The notes beneath the pieces were generated by a model. That model was not told the origin of the DNA and made no database searches. It saw nothing but the letters and a program-made list of their open reading frames with translations. From a virus: a stretch of DNA of 64,000 nt. The stretch lies in UHGV virus genome UHGV-0034108; one strand, 5' to 3'. A program made the translations under genes and the position numbers. Of the stretch, positions 10,530 to 64,000 are shown one piece after another. The first letter of the stretch is position 1, and every line of letters starts with the position of its first letter.

Positions 10530-11786
10530 TTATTTGTTTAGAATTTTGTTAATCAATGCAAGCAGCATCAATGACCCGCTCTTTCTTTGTTGACGATAAG
10601 ACTTTATGTCTTTTGCTCTTTGGTAATACTTCGCTACACCGTTTATGTCATCCGGTCTTGGCAGTTCTTCAAAGTCACAGACGGCACCGTCAAAGAACAG
10701 TGGGCATACACCGCCCATTTCTCCATTCCTGTTTGCTATGACATACAGGAATCTTCCGTAGTTACGAAGTCCCTGCCCGGTCTCGTCCTGAATCTTATAT
10801 CCAAGCCAGGCTGGTAGACCGAACTTTGACGGGTCAAAAAGACCAAGAACTATATCGGCATCTCTTGAAGTGTACTTCGAATCGGAGAGACCGGCTGCTG
10901 ACGGGAGCATCTTCTTCTGCTTTATCGCTTCCAGACCCTCCGTTTCAGACGCCTGTTGCTGTATCGCCACGCAGGTGTAGTTGAACCTGTTTCGGAGATA
11001 CTTCACGAAATATTCGCTCATTTTGTCAACGGCATCTTTCGTTCTGAATCCCTGCTCCTTATCCAAGAGGCTGACATGATCGATGAGGACAATCTTATAA
11101 TGATTCGGGTCATCCTGCACATAGGAGTCGAATACCTCAACTTCCTTTCCGGCAAGTCCGTTGGACTTCATCTTGTGGGTCGTGTACTTGCCAACCGATT
11201 TCGCGTATTTCTCGCACACGCGAAGTATCCCAGTCGGGTTGGTGTCCTCTGTTTCAAACTGCACGCAACTCTCGAAGAACCGGATGCGCTCCTGATATTT
11301 CTCGCTCCTCAGTTTTTCCAGCGCCTCTTCCGGAACCGGATAGTCGCTGGATGTTGAGCGAAGATCGGACGGTGACAGTCTTATACCGTCAAGGGAATAC
11401 AGCAGATGCGAGAGATACCTCTCTATCACCTTCTGCACAGCCTCCTCAAGGGCAAAGTATATGATGTGAACAGAGCATTTTTCCGGATATTCAAAAGCAT
11501 AATCCAGAACTGTGTACAGATACAGAAAGTTAGCGAGGTTCGTCTTACCAACTTTTTGGTTTGCTGTGCAGACGACATATTGTCCCTGTTCTATGCCCGG
11601 AAACTCGTTTCTGAATCTCTCGAACGGAAGAGGAATACAGTTGGTGCCACCGTGGAGCACATTGTTTCTCCTTTCCTCAAGATTGTCAAGTACTCCGGCG
11701 ACGGAGCTTATGTCGTTTACGACCATCGCGTACTCCTCGAACTCCTCGTCGGTAATTCCGAGCGTAGTGTTATATCCCTCTATCAT
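10530..11786 (-). CDS. DnaB-like replicative helicase (C-terminal RecA-like domain)
   Basis: Walker A CTANQKVGKTNLA. H2-like IVLIDHVSLL. Q-rich H3 (CVAIQQQASE). H4-like DADIVLGLFDPSKF. Confidence 0.75.
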   Translation of the reverse strand: MIEGYNTTLGITDEEFEEYAMVVNDISSVAGVLDNLEERRNNVLHGGTNCIPLPFERFRNEFPGIEQGQYVVCTANQKVGKTNLANFLYLYTVLDYAFEYPEKCSVHIIYFALEEAVQKVIERYLSHLLYSLDGIRLSPSDLRSTSSDYPVPEEALEKLRSEKYQERIRFFESCVQFETEDTNPTGILRVCEKYAKSVGKYTTHKMKSNGLAGKEVEVFDSYVQDDPNHYKIVLIDHVSLLDKEQGFRTKDAVDKMSEYFVKYLRNRFNYTCVAIQQQASETEGLEAIKQKKMLPSAAGLSDSKYTSRDADIVLGLFDPSKFGLPAWLGYKIQDETGQGLRNYGRFLYVIANRNGEMGGVCPLFFDGAVCDFEELPRPDDINGVAKYYQRAKDIKSYRQQRKSGSLMLLALINKILNK

Positions 11787-14396: not shown

Positions 14397-14960
14397 TCAT
14401 AAGTCTGTATCGTTTTCAATCTGGGCAAGCGCCCCATTTGCCATATCGTAATAGACCACAGCAATTGACCCTTCGGTAGGACTGCCTGCGGCAATGCACA
14501 TGGTTATAGCTCCACCTTCAGCCAGCCAATGTGCGAGCCAGTCTACGCGACGAGTCCAGACTCCATAGATTTCTATTCCGCAACCGTCACTATATGAATC
14601 CTTAAAATCCCTGTTGATGACTACTGACTCACCATATTTCAATGTATATCTGTCCACCAAAGTATTAAACTCTGATTTAAGGATATGCCATCGGAGCTGA
14701 CGCTCACATACTACAGTGACTTGATATATATTATCAAGACCATAGGTATCCATAAGCAAAGTGACATCGTGACCGGCAAACTTCCCCCGCAAGACTGGAC
14801 CGGAGTCTGTCTCAGCCATAGAGAAACCCTTGCTCTGCATCTGTGAGATGAAGTCTCTCTTTGTACCGTCAATGGGGACGCCCATGAAGTGCATGTGACT
14901 CTGGGCAAAGCCCGCGATGCCTATCGACACCGCGAGCAAAAAGATAATTAAGCGTTTCAT
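14397..14960 (-). CDS. Secreted/exported protein (187 aa) with an N-terminal signal peptide; moron-like accessory gene
   Basis: N-terminus MKRLIIFLLAVSIGIAGFAQS is positive n-region, hydrophobic h-region, then an AxA-like cleavage site (FAQ|S). Confidence 0.65.
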   Translation of the reverse strand: MKRLIIFLLAVSIGIAGFAQSHMHFMGVPIDGTKRDFISQMQSKGFSMAETDSGPVLRGKFAGHDVTLLMDTYGLDNIYQVTVVCERQLRWHILKSEFNTLVDRYTLKYGESVVINRDFKDSYSDGCGIEIYGVWTRRVDWLAHWLAEGGAITMCIAAGSPTEGSIAVVYYDMANGALAQIENDTDL

Positions 14961-14968
14961 TTTATGAT

Positions 14969-15310
14969 TTATTTTATTCTAAGTGTTGCCTTTGCCACGT
15001 TGAGGCATCCAATCAATGTAGTTATACCTACTTCCCTAAAATAGACGGGTTCTGGATATATGTCCTCATTATTCGTAATGAAGAAGATATTGCCTGTAGG
15101 ATGCAGCTCGATTGCGGCAAGTTTCTCATCACGATACCCATCATCAGATGTCTGCCTCGGTATCTGTATTGCCAAATCATGCTCATCCGGAATTGAAATT
15201 ACATGATTTTCTGCCTTTTCAAGCAGTTCGTGCATCTCACTCCAGACTGCGTCCTGGATCTCATTACAGATCTGGAAATACTCATTTACCATTGTTTCAA
15301 TAGTCTTCAT
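14969..15310 (-). CDS. Hypothetical protein (113 aa)
   Basis: Co-oriented ORF. Confidence 0.55.
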   Translation of the reverse strand: MKTIETMVNEYFQICNEIQDAVWSEMHELLEKAENHVISIPDEHDLAIQIPRQTSDDGYRDEKLAAIELHPTGNIFFITNNEDIYPEPVYFREVGITTLIGCLNVAKATLRIK

Positions 15311-15323
15311 GATATTATATTTA

Positions 15324-16352
15324 ATGATTACGCAATGTTATACCTAAACTCGTTTTTATAAGCCAAGGCAGCGACCACGAGCCTATCAAAGAGTTTGTCT
15401 CCGAATGTCCTGCGGTTGAACTTGTAGCAGAACTCGTTCAGATAGCTTTGAAGGTAGTCGGGTCTGATGTCGTGATAGACGTCCAGCAGGAGCCGTTTTG
15501 CGTTGCTGATTGCGATATGAACCCACGGGAGTAGCTTACCGACCTGCTTTGGCTCTATGACCTGATGCACGTGTTTACTTACGAGTGACTTTATATTTGT
15601 ATATGACGTTGAATCGTCAGAAGTTATGGTTGAACTTGGATTGACATACATCCTCACCTTTCCGTCAATGGTTTCCGACTTGAGATCGTTGATGACGAGC
15701 ATCTTGATGTGCTTGACTGCGGTAGGCTTGTCGGAGGTTTTCTTCTGAGTCCCATCGGAGGTCTCGGCCAGGACGAGGACCGCAGTTTTCTTCTGGCTTC
15801 CGCGCCCGCGTTTCTGCGGCTCGTCCTTCTTGCCCTCAGGGGTCTCGGTGGAGAAGAACCCCTCGTCCATCTCCACTATCCCACACACCTGGTATTGCGC
15901 GTCCCGCTTGCCCATGATACTCCGAAGCTTATGAAGCATCGCCCAGATTGGCATATAGTTCTTGTGACCCAGCTGACGCTGGAGCTCCGATGCGGAGAAA
16001 CTCTTCCGCGTCGAGGTGAGCAGGTGCATCGCCGTGAACCAGTACATCAGTGGCAGTTGGCTGCCGTGCATTACCGTATTCGCCTTCAGGCTCTGGCGGT
16101 AATGGCAGCCCTTGCACTCGAAGCATTTCTTATCCTTCTTCCAATAGTGCTCCGTGCAGCCACACTTTGGACAGACAACGCCCTGCTTCTCCCTGTATTC
16201 CCTAAGCTTGTTCTCGCAGCTTTCCTCATTGGGAAACTCCTGCATAAAGTCTATAAGTTTCATTGTATCTTCGTTTGTTGGGACAAAGATACTGTTCGAC
16301 TGTGCAAAAACGCTGCGCAAGTTATGACTTAGGTATAACATTAATTATTCAT
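15324..16352 (-). mobile_element. IS1595-family insertion sequence, about 1.0 kb (inner boundaries 15334 and 16342 are firm; outer boundaries approximate)
   Basis: aatgttatacctaa at 15334-15347 is the perfect reverse complement of ttaggtataacatt at 16329-16342. The repeat extends imperfectly outward to about 24 bp. It brackets a single transposase gene. No clean target-site duplication was seen. Confidence 0.6.
15328..16263 (-). CDS. IS1595-family (ISXO2-like) DDE transposase
   Basis: N-terminal zinc ribbon MKLIDFMQEFPNEESCENKLREYREKQGVVCPKCGC...CFECKGC, typical of IS1595 transposases. The middle segment ...KRGRGSQKKTAVLVLAETSDG... matches the ISXO2-like DDE domain. The start was placed at the internal Met (16261-16263); the upstream 26 codons overlap the terminal inverted repeat. 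Confidence 0.8.
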   Translation of the reverse strand: MKLIDFMQEFPNEESCENKLREYREKQGVVCPKCGCTEHYWKKDKKCFECKGCHYRQSLKANTVMHGSQLPLMYWFTAMHLLTSTRKSFSASELQRQLGHKNYMPIWAMLHKLRSIMGKRDAQYQVCGIVEMDEGFFSTETPEGKKDEPQKRGRGSQKKTAVLVLAETSDGTQKKTSDKPTAVKHIKMLVINDLKSETIDGKVRMYVNPSSTITSDDSTSYTNIKSLVSKHVHQVIEPKQVGKLLPWVHIAISNAKRLLLDVYHDIRPDYLQSYLNEFCYKFNRRTFGDKLFDRLVVAALAYKNEFRYNIA

Positions 16353-17220
16353 AATTTTTATTTGTTTCGACCGAGGATTCTCATCCTCACGCACTATGCC
16401 TGACGACTTTTTATACTCGCATAGTCGAGTTACCCTTGCTTTTTCCTGAGAGAAATATTATATTATTATAATATTTATCTCCCTTTAAAGAAATATAAAA
16501 CTTTCTGTATAAGGAGGGGTCTGGGGAACCACCGGAAATCAAATCCCCCGGAAATCTCAAAAATCCGGGGAATTTCATTCCTGATGAGAGAAAGGACGAG
16601 GAGCGGAAACCTACCAGGGAAGAGACAGTCTACCTCTCGAACAGAAGAAAGACCAAAGCTATTTCTCTTGGTCCTTCAAGAAAGCCTTGAAAGCTTTTAA
16701 CTCTGACTTCTTCACGGGATAAAGAAACCCCATAAAGCAAACCAGAACAAGTCTTTCCTCAGGCTTTTTAGTATTTGATTTTTCCATGGCAGAATCAAAG
16801 AGCTAAAAATCAAGAAGTTAAGAATCAGACTCACGCACGTGTATACGCACGCGCGAGGAAACCCGAGCCGGAAAGAGAAACTCCAAAACCGAGCGGCGAC
16901 CGGTAAGCAATAGTTAAATGCGCCGGGCCCTTGGAGTCGGACTTTCGCGGAAAGGGCATAGAAATGGCCTTCTCAGCCGTTTTTTCTCTTCGGACGATAA
17001 CTTATATGTCTGAGAAAAGATAATGGCTCAGAGGGGCATTTCTGAGGAAAGTCTATTTCTGACTAAAAAATCAAGGCGGAAATTCAAGTCAGAAATAGGC
17101 TATGGCAGTCGAATCAAACCTCAACAAGCCGTTGGGAGCAGGTTAAAGTCCATAAGAAAAACTTATGGATAAAGCCCGACTTTGGTAGTCAGTTGGGTCA
17201 GATTCGACTGCCAGTTGGGT

Positions 17221-17250
17221 CAGTCAAGGAACAAAAAAGAGAGGCCCGAA
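17221..17250 (-). terminator. Rho-independent terminator (minus strand) downstream of gene 17261..17614
   Basis: On the minus strand the sequence reads GAGGGGCC-TTCG-GGCCTCTC followed by TTTTTTGTT. Confidence 0.7.
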
Positions 17251-17260
17251 GGCCCCTCGA

Positions 17261-53835: not shown

Positions 53836-54025
53836 AGTTTTAAATTATTCAAAAAAATGTCATTTACTGTTTTCATGTACATATACAAAGTTTGCTTCTA
53901 AAAAATTAGGTATAAAACTTCTATAAGTAGTATATATTGCCATATAAACATACGGACAATATACTATATTCTTTACTTTTTATAACAGAAATATTTATAA
54001 CTGCCGAGCGAATGCTTTGCGTAAG

Positions 54026-54033: not shown

Positions 54034-54056
54034 TGCGTTTATAAACAGATATATTT

Positions 54057-57000
54057 ATGTTAGAGGTTTGCCCGTCACCGGTTTCGTATCAGAACGACCC
54101 GCGTTTTCAGAAACTAATGGAGTCATACAAGGATAGGCATTATCCAGCTCATTTTGTGATGATGTCTATTATAGATTGTCGTGAATACTATGATTATGAT
54201 GAGGACTGGATTCCGGATACTCCAGCAGAGAAAGCTGTCCTCACGAAGTACATCAAATATCACATGCTTAATCATAAGCTATCACGGACTGATTCGAAGA
54301 TGGATCAGGAGCATTATGAAGCAATGTATGACACGCTATATACAAACTTTACACCTCAACAACTAAACAATAGACTTGAACTTTTAGCTACAACATTCAG
54401 ACAAGTTGTAGATCTGAAAGAAGCCACTGATGTAACTGAGCGTTCTCGTAAAGATATAATAATGGCACAATCTAATGAAAGAGGAAATGCCTATGTTAAT
54501 ATCATGCGAGAGGTGTTTGATTTAATAGCAAAGGCAGCTAATTCTGTTACAATGTTTCATCGTCTTGCAAAGGGCATACCTGTTGGAGATCCTCGCAGAA
54601 TAGAACTTGCTCATAAGGCTAATGAAATCGCAGATAAGGCTATGCAAATGATTGATTTCAAGGAGCAACTTGTTGCTCTTGCTGCTCCGAGAATTGGTGA
54701 GATGGAAGGGTTTGCTGTAAGTGTGAAAGATATGAACGTGTCTTTTGACGAACAGGCAGATGAGGAGAGCGAGACTTTGTCAGAAGAGGGAGAATCAGCG
54801 ACTGACGGACAGGATACTGAAGAAGGAATGAAGGGAGAAAGGTACACTGATTTTCGTGTCTTGAAACTTATGGAAACATTATCTCCGAGGTGCCGAAGAT
54901 TTCTATCCACGATACGCAGAACTGATGCAAATGGTCATTATACTGTTGACGATATGCAGATGCCACAATATGTAGGAGGTAGGCAGGCTGCCATAGTTCT
55001 CCGCAGGGCATTGGTAAACTCCACCCCAGAAACTTTTATGTCAGACTTGGAAACTGCTGCTGAGAGAAATTCGTGGGTGAACGAACTTATCCGTAGGCTC
55101 AAGGCTGAACCGGATATGCAGGCTCTTGTCTATTGTGACATGAAGAAGGCTGAAAGTACTTATGTGTACGACAACTTCGTCGATGGAAAGCTTCTTCCAA
55201 GGATTGCCAACTCGCGTTCAGCCGGGTTTGTCCTGATGAGGGAAGCTGGAAACAATATGACCGGAGGATGGGTGCTTGATGAAAAGTACAGTCTGTATGA
55301 GCCGGATGGGACAATCGTTTCAAGGGAAAAACTTCGTGACATCGGAAAAGAGTTTGATGCTGTTGTTACTCCAGATATTAAAGAGGAACTTAGATTTATA
55401 AACCTTGTTAAAGGCGGCGACAGATTCTCACAGAAATATGTATGGCAGCAGACTGTGAATGCTTATGGTCCGGACAGCACAGCTGTCAAGTATGGTGCTG
55501 AACCTCGTTATTTGGATTATCTTCTCCTCGAACCTGTTGATGCAATGAAGGAATTTCTGCGGAGACATCCTGAGCTTCCAGAAAAACTCGCTCTCTTTGC
55601 GAGAGGTGCCGGGTTTGACATCACTGCTAATGATATTCGCGTGAGTGCAGTGCAGGAGATGACACAGAAGAGTTGGGAACTTCTTAGGGGTTTTGAGCAC
55701 AGACACGACAAGAAGGACAAGAACAAGCTGATTCAGATAATCCGTGGACTAAACAGCATGATAGGATATGCTCAGGCTACATACGATTATTATGGCGTAA
55801 GGACTGGGCAATACCTGTATAATACAGCTACATCAGCTATGAAGCTGCTGAACTCGTGCATTGCTCTGTCTAAGTATAATGAAGTTGAAAATCGAGTGCT
55901 TAACGAGGGTAAGACACTTTCTGCATACAACAACGTTAATCTTCTTCATCAAGTTGTAGATGATCTTTCTAATAAGAAGGGACTTGAGGAAGACGATTAC
56001 AATAAGATGATGGAGGATAAGTATCTTCAGTTCGAAGGAATGTCTCTTGGTTATGGTGATAAAAGAAAGGCTACCGGATGGTTAAAGCGACTTATTCAGC
56101 CTAATCCTAATCCTGCTCTTGACCATTGGCGCTCAAATGTAAAAGTTATTGACTGCATTGGCTATAATCATGTCGAATATTCAAAGATGACAACATCGCA
56201 AAAGCTCATCAATGCAATGGCTATGTACTTTGAGTCACAGCAGTTCGATAATATGCCTGCTTTTGAGGTCCCGATACAGTCGGACTACACTACTGCGTAT
56301 AACTTCATCACTATGTATGGCATAAATTACGATGCATATGAACCAGCTGTAGTAGTAGAGTTGGAGCGTCTTACTAAGGAGGCAGGTGATGATGAAGAAA
56401 AGAAGAAGGAGATAAAAGACTGGTACGACAAGATGATTAAATCAGACCATACTGAACTTCATCTTGATTTTGTATATACTTTAAATGAGCACAAGTATGT
56501 CTCTCGTCTGGTGGATGCACTTGCAGACGAGGTTCTTATAGAACTTGAAAGAATTGATGCAATAGAGAAGCGAGTAGCCGCAAGGGGTGAATTGCTTACG
56601 GTCTATGAAAGACAAGGTAGGAAGTTCCAGATATTCCCGGAGTTCAACGATAATGGTTTCCGTAAGAAGTACAGTGAATTTGCCGATGCACAGGAAGCAA
56701 GAGATTTTGTATGTGACCAAATTGCTGAACAGTTGCGGAAGGTACTTGATGCGGATATAGCAAAGATTGAACAGGAGAAAGTATTACAGCATCCTGCAAT
56801 GAAGCAGATAAAGGACCCGAATGGTTCTGGTGAAAATATGTATGCAGAGAACGGAACATTTGCTGAACTTCCTGTTGGATCTCAGCAAATGCTTGTTGGC
56901 TTCTGCCTCAACACTTTCTATGCTCGTCAGCAGATGATAAAGATTTTCACAGGCGGAATGGAGCAGTTCAATGGTCTTCTCGACTATGAGAAAAGAAACA

Positions 57001-60000
57001 TGCTTCTGCATGCAACGCACTCCTCTCTTTATCCAAATGCGACTTGGAAGGGTAAGATGCCAGGTTGGAAGAATCCAAAGACCGGGCAGTTTGAGACCTT
57101 TGGTTCAAAACAGAATGTCGTCTATCTTGAAGATGACAAGGCTGTGTCTGCGGTGCTCGATGACATAAAGGAAATGCTTGGACAACTGAAGGCGGAGAAG
57201 GTGATAAGTGCGACACAATATGAGCAGATGATTGACGCATACTCTAACATCAAGGTGACTGACGGACAGGGATTCCGCACTCTTGATTCATATAGGGCAA
57301 TCATGATTCAGGCTGCACAATGGACTGATGAACTTGAAAGAGCCTATATTCGCATAAAGGATGGTATGCCTCAGCCGCAGGATATAAACAAGTTCATGCA
57401 CGGAATCAAGCCTGTATATACAGGCTATGAGACTGTAGCTCCATTCAAAGGTCAGAAGCCTGTCAGGTTAACGGTGCTTCATAAATATTCGGAGTGTGTT
57501 CTTCTTCCTGTTGAACTGGCAAAGTACTGTCTCAAGGCTAAGTCTGCACCTCTGATGGCATTTGATGAAGTACAGAAACGACTTGCAAAAGACGGTAAGA
57601 GGGTGGATATGTTCCTCATGCACAGTGGGGGAAAAGTCGGTGCGTTCTCTATCGTCAATCCGTTTGATAAGTATAAGACAACTGGAGAAAGAAAATATAA
57701 GACGGCAGATGAGATTGCTGATTGTATTTATAACAGCGTGACTTCAAGCCCGACAGCTATACATGAGTTCGATATGAACGGTTACGGAATAGCTGCATCT
57801 GTATCTCACGAAACTGCTGACGAGAAGATTTCTATGGCATCACAGGCTGAGAAAGTCGGAATGGCTAACATCTCGGATGGCGACACTGTAACCATACGCG
57901 GAAAGCAGATGAGTGCCCGCGATGCACGGGAGCTGTACTATCAGACCAAAGCTGCTGATACTATAGAGACGTATCAGAAATTGCGTGAGACATTCGTGAA
58001 CTCAGATGAACTTGATAAGATGTTCAGAGAGGAGATAGCACAGAAGGCGTACTCTCCAATGGAGATACAGTTTGCCCTTCAACATCTTTCAAATGGGCAA
58101 TGGGCTATGCCGTTGTTCGCTCCGAACATAGAGCATCAGGTGCAGGAACTGCTTGCATCTGTGATAAAGAAGCGTCTTACAAAGCCAAAGAACAAAGGAG
58201 CAAATATACTTCAAGCTACCGGTCTTGGTATGGATATAGACGCGAGTCCATTCGAGGGTAATGATACTCTGTCTGAAGAGGATAAGCTACGTGTTGTGTT
58301 TGAGGGTACAGGTGCTAACAAGAGAATAAAGTATGTTGAGGTTTTCATGCCGATTCATGACCGCAGACTTGCGATGTTTGCAGAGAAGAACGGAGGGATA
58401 AGTCCGGCTCGTTTGAGAAAACTCGTTGCTGATGGTACAATACCGGAATCAATGCTGGAGTTCGTAGCATATCGTACACCTTCAGATGCAGAACACTCCG
58501 TGATACCTTGTAGGGTAAAAGGCTTCACCGCGAATGTTGAAGGTGCTACACTTGAGATGCCGAAGGAGATAATGGTGATGACTGGTCACGACTATGATGG
58601 TGACAAGATGAGATGTCATTTTAAGAACTTCCGCGTTGTTGATAAAAATGATGATGATACAAACTTCAGTGATGTAGACTACCTGCGCATGGTTCTTGGC
58701 CAAATGGATGTAGAGAACAGCAGGTTTATGAAATGTGTTGTTTATGAGTATGATTATGATAGATCTCCGCTTGAGAACTCCCCTGCTGCAAGAAACAACG
58801 CAAGGGTAGAGATATTCTTCTCGCAGCTTACATCTCCAGAAGGCTCACGCAGAGTTCTCATTCCTGGTGGATGCGATGAAACGAAAATCATTGCGAAGTC
58901 TATGTTCCTCACAAGAGCTGCCTCAGACGACAGGGTGAAGGATGTCATTGCAGATGTTCTTCAATCTCAAGGTATGTCTGAACGAGATGCTCGTTTGGCA
59001 GTAAGGAACTCTTCATCTCTGTATGATACTCTTGTTAGACGTGATGACGGGCAGTTGTCAGATATAATGAAGGCGGTTAATGGATACGAGACCCCTTATT
59101 CGCTGAAGCACTCTGTAGACTCCTTCGAGTATATCATGGGTGGTGCTGAGATGATAGGTATATATGCTATGTACAATTCAGCATTTCAGATGTTCCAACG
59201 TCTTAACCTGAACTATAATACTATAAATTCAAAGGGGGAGGAATATGATGTATCTCTTCTCGGACATAAATACGGACATCTTTTCGATATTAAGAACCAC
59301 AGAGGAAGGCTTGCATCGCTTGGTCTTGCAAGGCTTCTGAATGCTGCTGTCGATAATGGAAAGGATCCTGTACTTGGATATTTGCATCAGTCACCGGAAA
59401 TGGCGAAGCTTACTGTGTTTATGCTTGCGGCAGGATCTACTGAGGAGGAGGTTCATCTCGTGATGAACCAGCCGGCTGTGATTGAGTTGACTAACCGGCT
59501 AAAGTCTAAAGAGTCTTTGGGAATGCACACTGAAGTGCAAGATTTGCTTCAGGAGATTGCAGGGACAGGACTTGATAGTAACAGTAAGACGCCGATGACT
59601 GATACAAGGTATTACTACAAGCCTCTCGATATTGTATCTAAGATGACGAGAGATGACTTTACAGGAAATCTCGGAAAGACATTTGGTGAGATTCTTATTG
59701 GAAGTGACGAGGATGCAATAAGGCAGCAGGCTGCTGTGCTTCAGTTCCTTCATCATATTAATAGTGCAGCAAACGATATTGCGGACTTTGTGAGGTACAC
59801 GAGACCCGAATCTGCAAGCGGAGCTATAGGAACGACAGTTGCGAATATAATATCAAAGGAAATAGCTCTCAATGAGTTCAGAGCAAAAATAGAAAACAAG
59901 AATTATACTACTATAACCGGAATGCAGGATGTACTTGCAAAACGAAATGTAGAGGCAGGATGGGAGTCATCATACCTTAATGGAGTTATAGGCAACAAGC

Positions 60001-63000
60001 TTCCGGAAGTGGTGGCGTTGAACGCATTGATGATTGACAGTGCCAGAGATATGTTCTTGCCGTTCTTCCCTCAAGCAAGACAGTCGTGGGTAGATGTAGC
60101 TACCAAAGTCGCAAAGCTGTATGATTACAGAACGGTATCTGAGGATTTGCTGAAGAAGATTATGAACGATATGATTCTTTGGAAACTTCTTTCTGACAGA
60201 CAATTTACGACCGGAGATCCACAGGTGGAGCAGAAGAGAGTTATCGTTGATGTACCTAAAGACCTGCGTGACCTCAAGGCAAGGATAGAAACAGCGCACA
60301 AGAATCCGGGTACTGATCCGGCTGCTGAAGCGCTGTACGGTAATGCGTTCCTCAATAAGTTTAGGTTGGTATCTCCGGAAGAGGAAAAGAATCCACGTTT
60401 GATGTTTATCATGGACGGTGCCCCTGCTGAGGGTTCTCGTGATATGATAACTTCATCATGGGGACAGATGCTTCGGTTGAAAGACGAGAAGATAAACCAG
60501 CTTGCTGTAGATTTGTTCAAATACAATATATACACAAACGGCTTTGCATACGGTATGTATGAGTTCGCGCATTTTGCTCCTATGAATGTGCTTCAACGTA
60601 CTATGGAGTATGTACCTGCATTGAGGAGGATGCTCAAGTCGAACTGGCGTAACGATGCTGATACTGTGAACTTCATCAATCAGTATATCATGAATCACTG
60701 GGGCGAGGAAAGACTCGTCCAGAAAGTACAGTCAAGCAGTCTGAAGATTCTCGGAAAGACTGATGAGGGTGGTGATGAACGACTGATGTTGTCTCCGGCA
60801 AATGACAAGAGTGTACTTGAAGCGATAGGAAATCAGATGTATCTCGTTGTGACAAGACCGGGAAGTAAATCAAAGAATGGCAGAGGAAGCAAGACTGTGC
60901 AGACTTTGTATCGTGTTGAGGCGGGAACAGCAGAAGCTCCTATAATTCTTACGAAGGCGGCTAAGCTTGGAGGTATGACAAGAAGGCGACAGGTGACAAG
61001 ACAGTATAATCCTACCGTTGACTATCATTTCGTTCAGGCTGTCACTCCAGGAAATGACTCTGCTTGGGGAGTACTCAATGACCTTGAATTGCGTGAGGCA
61101 CAGGCACTTCCTCCTTCTGAAGCAGATATAGACCGTATCACTTCCTCTGATGAGACTGCAAAGATAGCCGAATACAAGGCAGGTTTCAAACTTGATCCGC
61201 TTTCAATCTTTGGACCTGCAATGAAGCCGAAGGAGCAGAGGCAGGCACAGGAGAAGGCAGCAAAGGTGACAAGAAGTGACTCGCAGATAGAGAGGCTTGC
61301 AAAGCTTTCTGGAAATGTGGAACAGAAACAGACTGAGACCACTGAAGCGTCTGAGAATGATGGGAGGTTCGATCTTATGCCGGAGGAGAGGGATGATAGT
61401 ACTGTTCCTGTTGGCTTCGGAGACTTCTTCGGTTTCGGAGCAGGAGTTGACTCTGAAGCTCTTAAAGCAGCTGTTGTCAGATCTTCTGAAACTGATGCTG
61501 AGACTTCCGAATCGGAAGAGAAATTATCCAAAGAGGATACAGATAAATATAAGAATAACGGGCAGATGTTGAGTATAGTTCGCAGAGACGAGAAGGGAGA
61601 GTTCATCACAGAGGAAGTCCCTGCTACCCCGGATAATGTCCGTCTTTCAAGAAGACAGCGGACTTTTGTCGAGCTGAACGAGAAACTCGAACATATACTC
61701 AACAAGCATGGCGTTGGAATCGGAACTCTTTACAGTGCCGAGGCTCGTGTGCATTTTGGCGGTGTCGCTGACTTTGAGACTGCCGATGTCACCGCTGCCG
61801 GTCTCGTTGAACTGATAAGGATTGCCGAGGGCTACGAAGGTGAACAGGCTCTACCTGAGGAGTTCGCCCATGTTGCGCTTGAGATGCTCGGCCATGACCA
61901 TCCGCTTGTGAAAAGGCTTCTTGCTGCGATAGACTCAAGTGACGAGGCCTTGCAGGAGGCATACAACGGGCTGTATAATGAGTATGTCAAGATGTATGGC
62001 GAGGACAACAAGGCAAAGCTTGTATTGGAGGCAGCCGGAAAGCTCGTTGCCAAGCATCTCTTCCTTGAGCAGGAGATACAGACAAATGTCATAAAGAGAC
62101 TTGTCAGTCGTGTATGTGATGCAATAAAGGATTTCTTCCGTAAGTTCAGTCGTGACGAGGTTCAGAATGCCATCTTCGACGCAAACAGAATAGCATCTAA
62201 GATTGCGAGGGAGATGCTTGGAGGGCGACTTGCTGACGAAATGAGTCTTGAGAATATAGCTACACGTGACAAGCTCTTTAGTAAAGTTCAGAAAGACCTC
62301 ACAGGAAAGCAAGATGTGTTGTCGAAGCTTCTCAAGACAGAAACTAAGCGTCTTGCCATTCTGAAGAAACGTCTCGGATACGCTAACAAGGGAGCATCGC
62401 AGGCATCACTACAGGCAGCTGAAGCTCAGGTAACGAAGCTGAAGTCCGCTATTGATAATCATAAGACGGAAGAGGCTGTACTCTCATATTTGAATGATTC
62501 TCTTGACTTCCTTGCAAAGACGGAGAAGTCTCTTGATGATGCAGTGAACTCCGGAAGACCGATGAACTCTGTATGTCGAAAGCTCAACACCGTGCGCGAT
62601 ACTATATACAGTTATGCAAGGGCGATAGATGATGTACGTACAGCATTGAATGATGGTGAACTTACCGATACAACTGGGTTGGTTGATACTTTGGAGCAAG
62701 TATCTCTTGTTGTGTCAAGGTTCAATGATAAGTACACTAAACTCGCAAGAACATATTTCGAGGAGATGCTGTCAAGTGTTTATGGTGAACACGGAAAAAC
62801 GGTTGAGATTGGAAAGCACAAGGGGCAGGTTATCTCTATACATGATATGGCGAGGAAAGCAGACCGCGACATCTCATTTGCTTCACGATGGTTCTATGCT
62901 ATCGCTGACTGCAATGACTATGTGCTAAAGGCTGTTGATGATGTAGTTCGTGGTGCAAAGGTTCGTGCACGCAGAAAGGCACTTGAAGTTCGGCCAAGAA

Positions 63001-64000
63001 TCGAAGCTGCGATTGCAGACCTGCAACGTGCTACAGGTTCACGCGATCAGAGTTTTATGTTTGAAAGGGATAAGGATGGCAAACGTACTGGATTATACTT
63101 GAAACCTGAAATTGCGAAGAAACAGCTTACTCCTGCACAGTTCAAGTTTTATAGCGAGATGATGGCTATAAAGGCTGATGCTGACAAGTGTATCCCGTCG
63201 TCACTTTATCGTGAGGACCATCTGAATATGGTAATGCTACGTAAGTACACCTTTGATAAGATAAAAGATGCTGATGGTCTTGGTGATAAAGCTCTTGAAG
63301 CTTGGGAAGGAATCAAGAATATGGTGATGGACACATCTGATAATTTCGATCCGGAGAACCATGAGGTTGCTGTTGACTTCCAGGGTAATAGAATTGATAT
63401 GCTTCCAGTGAAGTTCGTCCTCAAAGGAAAGAATGAGAGTTTCGACGATATGACAGAGGACGTTGCTACATCAATGATGACTTATGCAGGAATGGCATAT
63501 GAGTATAATGAACTCAATGGTGTAGTTGCGATGCTTGAGAATGCGAAGTACATGGCTGCTGAGCGTGATGTTATTCAAAAGACTGGTAATAGAACGCAGC
63601 GTGAGTCCATAGAGACTGATGAAGCTGCGTTCCGTGAGCCGTTTACAAAGAAGGCTGCGAGGTTACATGCTCAGGCTGCACTTGAGGACTTCTTCTATAT
63701 GCACGTCTATGGACATCGTGCAGCAAATGAAGGCACCTTTGGAAACACAAGGATTTCGAAGAGAAAAGTTGTGGACACAATAAACAATGTTGTGTCGCTC
63801 TCACAAATGGCTCTTAATATACCACAGCGAATCTCGAATGTGACTACAGGTTTGATGCAGGTTGTCATCGAATCCGCGGGGCGAGAAGTATACAATACCA
63901 AAGATGCTGCATGGGCTTCTGCTGTTTACATGAAAGAGTCGGGAGATAGACTTGTTCAGACAGGAAAGACTGATTACGATAATAAGTTGTCCTTGTGGAT
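54057..64000 (+). CDS. Giant virion-type RNA polymerase (crAss-like vRNAP family), 3'-truncated by the window end (more than 3314 aa)
   Basis: ATG at 54057 preceded by an in-frame TAA at 54042. Frame is open to 64000. Residues about 1465-1520 read AYRTPSDAEHSVIPCRVKGF...MVMTGHDYDGDKM. This matches the beta-prime double-psi beta-barrel catalytic region R.PS.H..S....NADFDGDQM. The DYDGD codons are at 58590-58604. Confidence 0.85.
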   Translation, partial: MLEVCPSPVSYQNDPRFQKLMESYKDRHYPAHFVMMSIIDCREYYDYDEDWIPDTPAEKAVLTKYIKYHMLNHKLSRTDSKMDQEHYEAMYDTLYTNFTPQQLNNRLELLATTFRQVVDLKEATDVTERSRKDIIMAQSNERGNAYVNIMREVFDLIAKAANSVTMFHRLAKGIPVGDPRRIELAHKANEIADKAMQMIDFKEQLVALAAPRIGEMEGFAVSVKDMNVSFDEQADEESETLSEEGESATDGQDTEEGMKGERYTDFRVLKLMETLSPRCRRFLSTIRRTDANGHYTVDDMQMPQYVGGRQAAIVLRRALVNSTPETFMSDLETAAERNSWVNELIRRLKAEPDMQALVYCDMKKAESTYVYDNFVDGKLLPRIANSRSAGFVLMREAGNNMTGGWVLDEKYSLYEPDGTIVSREKLRDIGKEFDAVVTPDIKEELRFINLVKGGDRFSQKYVWQQTVNAYGPDSTAVKYGAEPRYLDYLLLEPVDAMKEFLRRHPELPEKLALFARGAGFDITANDIRVSAVQEMTQKSWELLRGFEHRHDKKDKNKLIQIIRGLNSMIGYAQATYDYYGVRTGQYLYNTATSAMKLLNSCIALSKYNEVENRVLNEGKTLSAYNNVNLLHQVVDDLSNKKGLEEDDYNKMMEDKYLQFEGMSLGYGDKRKATGWLKRLIQPNPNPALDHWRSNVKVIDCIGYNHVEYSKMTTSQKLINAMAMYFESQQFDNMPAFEVPIQSDYTTAYNFITMYGINYDAYEPAVVVELERLTKEAGDDEEKKKEIKDWYDKMIKSDHTELHLDFVYTLNEHKYVSRLVDALADEVLIELERIDAIEKRVAARGELLTVYERQGRKFQIFPEFNDNGFRKKYSEFADAQEARDFVCDQIAEQLRKVLDADIAKIEQEKVLQHPAMKQIKDPNGSGENMYAENGTFAELPVGSQQMLVGFCLNTFYARQQMIKIFTGGMEQFNGLLDYEKRNMLLHATHSSLYPNATWKGKMPGWKNPKTGQFETFGSKQNVVYLEDDKAVSAVLDDIKEMLGQLKAEKVISATQYEQMIDAYSNIKVTDGQGFRTLDSYRAIMIQAAQWTDELERAYIRIKDGMPQPQDINKFMHGIKPVYTGYETVAPFKGQKPVRLTVLHKYSECVLLPVELAKYCLKAKSAPLMAFDEVQKRLAKDGKRVDMFLMHSGGKVGAFSIVNPFDKYKTTGERKYKTADEIADCIYNSVTSSPTAIHEFDMNGYGIAASVSHETADEKISMASQAEKVGMANISDGDTVTIRGKQMSARDARELYYQTKAADTIETYQKLRETFVNSDELDKMFREEIAQKAYSPMEIQFALQHLSNGQWAMPLFAPNIEHQVQELLASVIKKRLTKPKNKGANILQATGLGMDIDASPFEGNDTLSEEDKLRVVFEGTGANKRIKYVEVFMPIHDRRLAMFAEKNGGISPARLRKLVADGTIPESMLEFVAYRTPSDAEHSVIPCRVKGFTANVEGATLEMPKEIMVMTGHDYDGDKMRCHFKNFRVVDKNDDDTNFSDVDYLRMVLGQMDVENSRFMKCVVYEYDYDRSPLENSPAARNNARVEIFFSQLTSPEGSRRVLIPGGCDETKIIAKSMFLTRAASDDRVKDVIADVLQSQGMSERDARLAVRNSSSLYDTLVRRDDGQLSDIMKAVNGYETPYSLKHSVDSFEYIMGGAEMIGIYAMYNSAFQMFQRLNLNYNTINSKGEEYDVSLLGHKYGHLFDIKNHRGRLASLGLARLLNAAVDNGKDPVLGYLHQSPEMAKLTVFMLAAGSTEEEVHLVMNQPAVIELTNRLKSKESLGMHTEVQDLLQEIAGTGLDSNSKTPMTDTRYYYKPLDIVSKMTRDDFTGNLGKTFGEILIGSDEDAIRQQAAVLQFLHHINSAANDIADFVRYTRPESASGAIGTTVANIISKEIALNEFRAKIENKNYTTITGMQDVLAKRNVEAGWESSYLNGVIGNKLPEVVALNALMIDSARDMFLPFFPQARQSWVDVATKVAKLYDYRTVSEDLLKKIMNDMILWKLLSDRQFTTGDPQVEQKRVIVDVPKDLRDLKARIETAHKNPGTDPAAEALYGNAFLNKFRLVSPEEEKNPRLMFIMDGAPAEGSRDMITSSWGQMLRLKDEKINQLAVDLFKYNIYTNGFAYGMYEFAHFAPMNVLQRTMEYVPALRRMLKSNWRNDADTVNFINQYIMNHWGEERLVQKVQSSSLKILGKTDEGGDERLMLSPANDKSVLEAIGNQMYLVVTRPGSKSKNGRGSKTVQTLYRVEAGTAEAPIILTKAAKLGGMTRRRQVTRQYNPTVDYHFVQAVTPGNDSAWGVLNDLELREAQALPPSEADIDRITSSDETAKIAEYKAGFKLDPLSIFGPAMKPKEQRQAQEKAAKVTRSDSQIERLAKLSGNVEQKQTETTEASENDGRFDLMPEERDDSTVPVGFGDFFGFGAGVDSEALKAAVVRSSETDAETSESEEKLSKEDTDKYKNNGQMLSIVRRDEKGEFITEEVPATPDNVRLSRRQRTFVELNEKLEHILNKHGVGIGTLYSAEARVHFGGVADFETADVTAAGLVELIRIAEGYEGEQALPEEFAHVALEMLGHDHPLVKRLLAAIDSSDEALQEAYNGLYNEYVKMYGEDNKAKLVLEAAGKLVAKHLFLEQEIQTNVIKRLVSRVCDAIKDFFRKFSRDEVQNAIFDANRIASKIAREMLGGRLADEMSLENIATRDKLFSKVQKDLTGKQDVLSKLLKTETKRLAILKKRLGYANKGASQASLQAAEAQVTKLKSAIDNHKTEEAVLSYLNDSLDFLAKTEKSLDDAVNSGRPMNSVCRKLNTVRDTIYSYARAIDDVRTALNDGELTDTTGLVDTLEQVSLVVSRFNDKYTKLARTYFEEMLSSVYGEHGKTVEIGKHKGQVISIHDMARKADRDISFASRWFYAIADCNDYVLKAVDDVVRGAKVRARRKALEVRPRIEAAIADLQRATGSRDQSFMFERDKDGKRTGLYLKPEIAKKQLTPAQFKFYSEMMAIKADADKCIPSSLYREDHLNMVMLRKYTFDKIKDADGLGDKALEAWEGIKNMVMDTSDNFDPENHEVAVDFQGNRIDMLPVKFVLKGKNESFDDMTEDVATSMMTYAGMAYEYNELNGVVAMLENAKYMAAERDVIQKTGNRTQRESIETDEAAFREPFTKKAARLHAQAALEDFFYMHVYGHRAANEGTFGNTRISKRKVVDTINNVVSLSQMALNIPQRISNVTTGLMQVVIESAGREVYNTKDAAWASAVYMKESGDRLVQTGKTDYDNKLSLW

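Follow-up and report, generated by a model that had tools for sequence, protein, structure and literature searches.

An intact IS1595-family insertion sequence in place of accessory DNA, beside a predicted Pistol ribozyme, in a crAss-like phage

Insertion sequences of the IS1595 family that carry no passenger genes are compact elements of about 0.7-1.1 kb, with a single transposase gene and terminal inverted repeats; a zinc-finger N-terminal domain is present in every subgroup but IS1016, and 8-bp target-site duplications are the rule (Siguier, Gagnevin & Chandler 2009; reviewed in PMC8101967). One member of the family, ISApl4 of Actinobacillus, is 712 bp long, has perfect 14-bp terminal repeats, is multicopy in its host and always shows 8-bp direct repeats (PMC12561309). 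In phages, by contrast, insertion sequences of any kind are rare: 92% of phages are without them (PMC3429520). Among gut phages, the IScream phages have an IS30 copy at each end of the prophage, apparently for integration and excision; one of the two copies is degenerate (PMC12823448). A further described system that is relevant here is the Pistol class of self-cleaving ribozymes (RF02679), whose RNAs are phage-associated (PMC4604425).

The locus that we describe lies in a 64,000-nt stretch of phage DNA, to which we refer as a whole as the window. Like the IS1595 family at large, the element in the window has one transposase gene, which encodes a zinc-finger N terminus and a DDE_Tnp_IS1595 C terminus, as well as a length of about 1 kb and inverted repeats, and 8-bp duplications are found in a 65%-identical relative and at one copy of the element itself. 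Unlike the family, the phage copy has no duplication, and the ends of the element begin ATGA. With ISApl4 the element shares its family, the perfect 14-bp terminal repeats and multicopy occurrence in a host, but it is 1029 bp long, belongs to Bacteroidales and has imperfect repeats of 24 bp. As in the IScream phages, a bacterial insertion sequence sits within a gut phage genome; in contrast to them, the crAss-like phage has a single IS1595 copy, which is internal and intact, and nothing points to integration. The neighbouring ribozyme agrees with the Pistol class over the full model, and in the literature examined we found no description of a crAss-like phage in which a Pistol heads a variable slot for cargo. 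The features on which the following discussion draws are these:

15324-16352, minus strand: complete IS1595-family insertion sequence, 1029 bp, its ends set by full-length copies (n = 13)
16329-16352: terminal inverted repeat on the transposase 5' side, ATGAATAATTAATGTTATACCTAA on the minus strand, from direct reading and the copies
15324-15347: terminal inverted repeat on the transposase 3' side, ATGATTACGCAATGTTATACCTAA on the plus strand, from direct reading and the copies
15328-16263, minus strand: transposase gene as read from the internal Met (311 codons and a stop)
16105-16173, minus strand: zinc-ribbon core with Cys31, Cys34, Cys50 and Cys53, invariant in 14 homologues
15865-15867 (D133), 15616-15618 (D216) and 15433-15435 (E277), minus strand: catalytic triad
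16284-16291, minus strand: TATCTTTG, a match to TAnnTTTG, 21 nt upstream of the internal Met
16366-16430, minus strand: predicted Pistol self-cleaving ribozyme (RF02679, 55.7 bits against a gathering score of 34.5), not part of the element
14969-15310, minus strand: phage gene of 113 aa, its start codon 13 nt past the element end and in the same direction as the transposase

The lone open reading frame (ORF) between the repeat arms (15328-16341, minus strand, 337 aa) holds the pattern FPNEESC...CPKCGC...CFECKGC. Its product matches DDE_Tnp_IS1595 (PF12762, 3.6e-25) and Zn_ribbon_IS1595 (PF12760, 5.6e-7; 29.9 bits against a cut-off of 25.4) in Pfam, as well as the NCBIfam IS1595-family transposase (NF033547, 207 bits against a cut-off of 75). 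When the transposase is aligned with 13 homologues that are 51-79% identical, the residues Cys31, Cys34, Cys50, Cys53, D133, D216, E277, K281 and R284 (numbered on the 311-aa form of the transposase) are invariant, and the constancy of the cysteines and of the D, D and E argues for an intact zinc ribbon and an intact DDE triad. The family claim of the original prediction is thus borne out by Pfam, by NCBIfam and by the cysteines and the triad, and, as judged from sequence, the element is a member of the IS1595 family in its protein, its architecture and its mobility. Relatives of the transposase number in the thousands, and its 90%-identity cluster (76 members) includes proteins of bacterial contigs. 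Given that the closest copy in a species-representative genome, among the matches listed, reaches only 79% protein identity, the element is probably an unnamed member of the family.

Where does the transposase begin? The ATG of the longest ORF (16339-16341) falls within the right terminal repeat, and an internal Met had been proposed as the true start. Both the homologues, which are 310-313 aa long and align starting at the internal Met (16263), and a promoter box inside the supposed N-terminal extension support that proposal. TAnnTTTG is the Bacteroidetes -7 promoter consensus, established for Bacteroides promoters. Of 16 homologous elements, 10 carry a TAnnTTTG box 24-32 nt ahead of the ATG, compared with a background rate in the window of 0.41 per kb per strand, and we regard TATCTTTG as the probable transposase promoter. 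The conservation of the box backs the internal start and indicates a Bacteroidota host. A sigma-70-type hybrid promoter spanning the element/flank junction (ATAACA-16-TATAAT) was also considered and rejected; such hybrids are as frequent as shuffling predicts, and the consensus is the wrong one for Bacteroidetes.

The ends of the element can be defined both from the window itself and from copies elsewhere. As predicted, there are perfect 14-bp terminal inverted repeats: AATGTTATACCTAA (15334-15347) is the perfect reverse complement of 16329-16342, both on direct reading and in the repeat listing. With mismatches allowed, the arms grow to 24 nt (15324-15347 and 16329-16352), complementary at 20 of the 24 positions, with the inner 14 perfect; the arm at 15324-15347 takes in the end of the transposase gene, its final codons and stop codon included. 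When 14800-16900 was resampled 2000 times with a first-order Markov model, 2 of the resamples contained a perfect inverted repeat whose arms were 14 nt or longer and separated by 700-1500 nt. At up to two mismatches, the 14-mer has four matches in the window (about 0.45 expected by chance), namely, the two exact termini and two weak matches with two mismatches. The weak matches (12/14 of the terminal-repeat core, at 53906-53919 and 54384-54397, minus strand) lie on the same strand 478 nt apart and are probably due to chance rather than an inverted pair. The outer coordinates first proposed, 15324 and 16352, coincide with the limits of homology in the 13 full-length copies that we treat as bacterial in context (12 in bacterial contexts and 1 from a GenBank metagenome contig): the shared sequence spans element positions 1-1029, nothing is shared outside, and the repeat at 16329-16352 has no substitution in any of the 13. 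All bacterial copies have an A preceding ATGAAT and a T following ATCAT, where the phage copy has T and T. Since these flanking bases are constant in the bacterial copies, the element may in fact be 1031 bp long, with 25-bp repeats.

The 13 copies are 98.7-99.4% identical to the phage copy over 1029 bp and occupy at least eight distinct bacterial gene contexts, with neighbours that include dUTPase, TonB, UxuA, PNPOx, GH39/GH97 and an IS110 transposase. By their record names, several Bacteroidales-type contigs with the element come from Hadza and Nepal gut assemblies, and a search of the JGI metagenomes with the element end returned two loci, both of them bacterial-type copies. That 13 copies end at the same two bases defines the ends and indicates that the element has recently been mobile; the same 1029 bp in at least eight bacterial contexts, together with its absence from related phages, upholds the earlier reading of a mobile copy rather than a domesticated gene. 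The phage copy differs from all of these by six private substitutions (two in the untranslated leader, two synonymous, Q173P and L244I; none in the repeats). None of the 13 bacterial-context full-length copies has them, and there is accordingly no sign among these copies of re-transposition out of the phage. Other mobile genes were seen next to members of this transposon family: an IS110-family transposase adjoins a copy in one bacterial contig (L100, 35-2189), and a TnpB gene (OrfB_IS605 / Cas12f-like) adjoins a member in an IMG/VR contig (L003, 5001-7409).

The phage copy lacks a target-site duplication. Its flanks, TAAAAATT and TAAATATA, agree at 6 of 8 positions in very AT-rich DNA. Of eight distinct bacterial loci at which the element is fully flanked, only L097 has an 8-bp duplication, a perfect one (TAATTTTA); one of the other seven was seen in four independent assemblies. 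Duplication lengths of 2, 4, 8 and 9 bp and shifted ends were tried on the bacterial copies, and the sole model to fit any of them has an 8-bp duplication and an element longer by one base pair at each end. The 65%-identical relative, with ends ATGATTATCCG, has at least seven copies in a nanopore-assembled Paludibacteraceae metagenome-assembled genome, and six copies show 8-bp AT-rich duplications, four of them perfect and two at 7/8. At the bacterial loci without a duplication, the flanks may have been scrambled by recombination or by short-read chimeras, or the 8-bp rule may be weaker for this element.

On the evidence of its proteins, the carrier is a crAss-like phage (Crassvirales): its large terminase is 59% identical to that of Bacteroides phage crAss001 over 94% of the length, PHROG matches include terminase, major head protein and virion proteins, and contigs with the locus measure 90-96 kb, as for a phage of about 94 kb and within the 90-100 kb expected of the group. 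Nearly all of the data come from metagenomes assembled from short reads. The exact phage transposase protein occurs in 41 index blocks, 38 of which have a longest contig of 50-200 kb, and the 24 contigs that were read have identical neighbours throughout. At least 24 phage contigs, drawn from different samples and from both ENA assemblies and Logan, share the same two junctions; the flanking 113-aa and 117-aa proteins retrieve the same arrangement as the transposase does; and every close relative read carries the insertion with the six phage-private substitutions. Some phage contigs (such as L093 and L110) break inside the element, as is expected when a sample holds other copies. The constancy of junctions and neighbours across contigs indicates an insertion fixed in an apparently clonal lineage, not a one-off mis-assembly.

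How unusual is this location? Searches of 50,697 deposited phage records (megablast with the element and flanks, and tblastn) found no close homologue of the transposase and only two fragments of 24% identity. This result agrees with the general rarity of insertion sequences in phages, on which the original prediction had remarked for lytic phages (lytic growth being an assumption there), and the two together make the location unusual, not unprecedented. In IMG/VR, neither the 113-aa flanking protein nor a 26-nt anchor internal to the ribozyme had a match, and the ribozyme anchor had none in the JGI metagenomes. IMG/VR contigs with 51-61% identical transposases were considered as possible further carriers; the neighbours there are a methylase, a TnpB, or an Mfa2 fimbrial protein with a HaeII restriction enzyme, and since these contigs share no genes with the phage, they give no evidence that other phages carry such elements.

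More distant relatives of the phage are informative as to what the element replaced. Four of them (L094, L095, L116 and L117) keep both flanks, have no insertion sequence and contain four different versions of the cargo, in keeping with the plasticity that had been suggested for the locus. In these relatives the slot extends from a conserved sequence ending in GGTCGAAACAAATAAAAATTA to the beginning of the next gene, and its contents range from a hairpin-rich spacer of about 130 nt to a 62-aa ORF with additional small ORFs. The slot ORFs of 62 aa and 69 aa (L116, 5277-5465; L117, 5278-5466 and 5628-5837) match no family, and L095 is without the 113-aa gene. The element stands in place of about 0.13-0.8 kb of intergenic and cargo DNA found in the relatives. 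The hairpin-plus-T-run sequences of their native region upstream of the 113-aa gene are missing in the window, where 17 nt separate the transposase stop from the next start codon. The element had been described as inserted in an accessory region; the slot for accessory genes is real, but resident DNA was replaced, so that this is not a simple insertion. Similarly, the alignment to insertion-less relatives that had been proposed for defining the target site gave neither an exact empty site nor a duplication, but it did establish the absence of the element there and the replacement of resident DNA. Searches through the flanking proteins found no exact empty site, as the close relatives all carry the element and the distant ones have other DNA.

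The hypervariable slot starts immediately past the predicted Pistol ribozyme. In the Rfam scan, the match is 65 nt long, covers positions 1-68 of the model and lies 13 nt upstream of the element. The four relatives without the insertion have the ribozyme as well (56.4 bits), and stem P3 shows a compensatory change from G:C to A:U between the window and these relatives. Cleavage at the conserved G-U step would start the downstream RNA 18 nt before the element.

Upstream of the ribozyme lies a stretch of about 800 nt (16431-17260, minus strand) with few ORFs, which by eye is about 90% or more identical among three related phages. This region had been called ORF-free; it does have few ORFs, but it is conserved and comes with the Pistol ribozyme and a conserved ORF of 42 aa. 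That ORF, MEKSNTKKPEERLVLVCFMGFLYPVKKSELKAFKAFLKDQEK (16659-16787, minus strand), is conserved in relatives and was called by one source (L112, 4829-4957). Its differences among relatives fall mostly at third codon positions and by eye look largely synonymous, and on this pattern it is likely a real small gene. A hairpin-plus-T-run terminator (17239-17258) follows the 117-aa gene, and the low-ORF region begins past it; hairpin motifs of the form CCGGAAAT/CCCCGGA are repeated at 16530-16586. Rfam yields no family besides Pistol for 16431-17260, and blastn of the upstream non-coding region against the 50,697 deposited phage records gave no match.

Two observations concern regions farther away. 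The apparently ORF-poor stretch at 53.8-64 kb is really a single ORF (54045-64000, plus strand), which is longer than 3300 codons and still open at the window end; the region looked non-coding because this ORF is missing from the ORF list. In addition, a DnaB-like helicase that is intact in the window (10530-11786, 418 aa) appears in L094 (9507-11878) as three called ORFs (246, 319 and 203 aa), of which the second has a weak match to a LAGLIDADG endonuclease; the interruption looks like an intein or an intron-type insertion.

In total, we consider it highly probable that the window holds an intact, recently mobile IS1595 element of Bacteroidales origin, which passed from a host chromosome into a crAss-like phage and is carried there as a passenger. 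The identity, ends and intactness of the element, its copies elsewhere, its absence in relatives and the DNA replacement were established directly; from them we infer an order of events, a transposase activity and a transcription pattern. The element would have moved from the chromosome of a Bacteroidales host into the phage during infection and would have landed in an AT-rich spacer just downstream of the Pistol ribozyme, at the head of the hypervariable accessory-gene slot. An adjacent deletion, simultaneous or later, would have taken out the resident spacer and cargo; such a deletion would explain the absent target-site duplication and would offset the 1-kb gain in genome length. Given that there is no duplication and that a T stands in place of an A at one flank, this insertion-plus-deletion history is a reconstruction. 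By analogy with the IS1595 family, we posit that the TAnnTTTG promoter would drive the 311-aa transposase, that its zinc-ribbon N terminus would bind the 24-bp terminal repeats and that the D133/D216/E277 site would cut the ends and join them to AT-rich targets, normally with 8-bp duplications. In the phage, the element would be a tolerated passenger that is vertically inherited. Based on the shared direction, the 17-nt gap and the replacement of the upstream hairpins, the 113-aa and 187-aa genes are probably read through from, or from upstream of, the element. In the sequences compared, there is no evidence of a benefit to the phage or of integration.

Could the element instead be a working module that the lineage has kept? 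It might drive or couple the downstream accessory genes, their native control region being lost, as an operon whose transcript the Pistol ribozyme trims 18 nt ahead of the element, or its transposase and its 1 kb of homology might serve as an integrase-free device by which the phage, through a cointegrate or as a carrier, joins the host chromosome at resident copies. Such a role would fit the presence of the insertion in every close relative read, its orientation along the 113-aa gene and position 13 nt from that gene's start, the deletion of the native hairpins and the intactness of the ORF and the repeats, and the mobilisation of gut phages through IS30 elements offers a precedent (PMC12823448). 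However, the flanking proteins are identical across contigs, so that the strain looks clonal and fixation needs no selection; six substitutions, two of them nonsynonymous, are too few to give a readable signal of selection. Moreover, no junction of phage, element and bacterium was seen, the phage-private changes are absent from the 13 bacterial copies, and the sigma-70-like promoter at the junction is no commoner than in shuffled sequence and differs from the Bacteroidetes consensus. We hold either form of co-option to be unlikely.

Still less probable is an assembly artefact, in which a multicopy bacterial insertion sequence was misthreaded into a phage contig. The element is indeed multicopy in the same kinds of samples, L093 and L110 break inside it, and several short bacterial contigs have flanks without a duplication, as chimeric joins would give. 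Against this stand the same two junctions in at least 24 contigs from different samples, in ENA assemblies and Logan alike, and the six phage substitutions, found in 0 of 13 bacterial-context full-length copies; in addition, the slot DNA of the relatives is absent here, which leaves no intact site for a false insertion to interrupt. We give equally little credence to domestication or decay, by which the transposase gene would have lost its mobility in every genome. The lack of a duplication at the phage copy and its one outermost flanking base unlike those of the bacterial copies would be in line with decay, but near-identical copies with identical ends in many bacterial contexts are not, and neither is a phage copy whose triad, zinc ribbon, repeats and promoter box are all intact; domestication of the element as a family is largely refuted. 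The preferred reading is thus that of an intact, recently mobile element of Bacteroidales origin that the phage carries as a passenger.

What does such a passenger mean for the biology of its carrier? The element is an ordinary one in an uncommon carrier, and it alters nothing in the knowledge of the IS1595 mechanism. For the crAss-like phages, the most abundant phage group of the human gut, an intact insertion sequence is a case for studying how much extra DNA is tolerated, all the more as the gain of the element was accompanied by a loss of resident cargo. The cargo slot downstream of a conserved Pistol gives this orphan ribozyme class a reproducible genomic context. Finally, the 99.4%-identical element in Bacteroidales-type contigs connects an uncultured crAss-like phage with a possible host in a way that can be tested.
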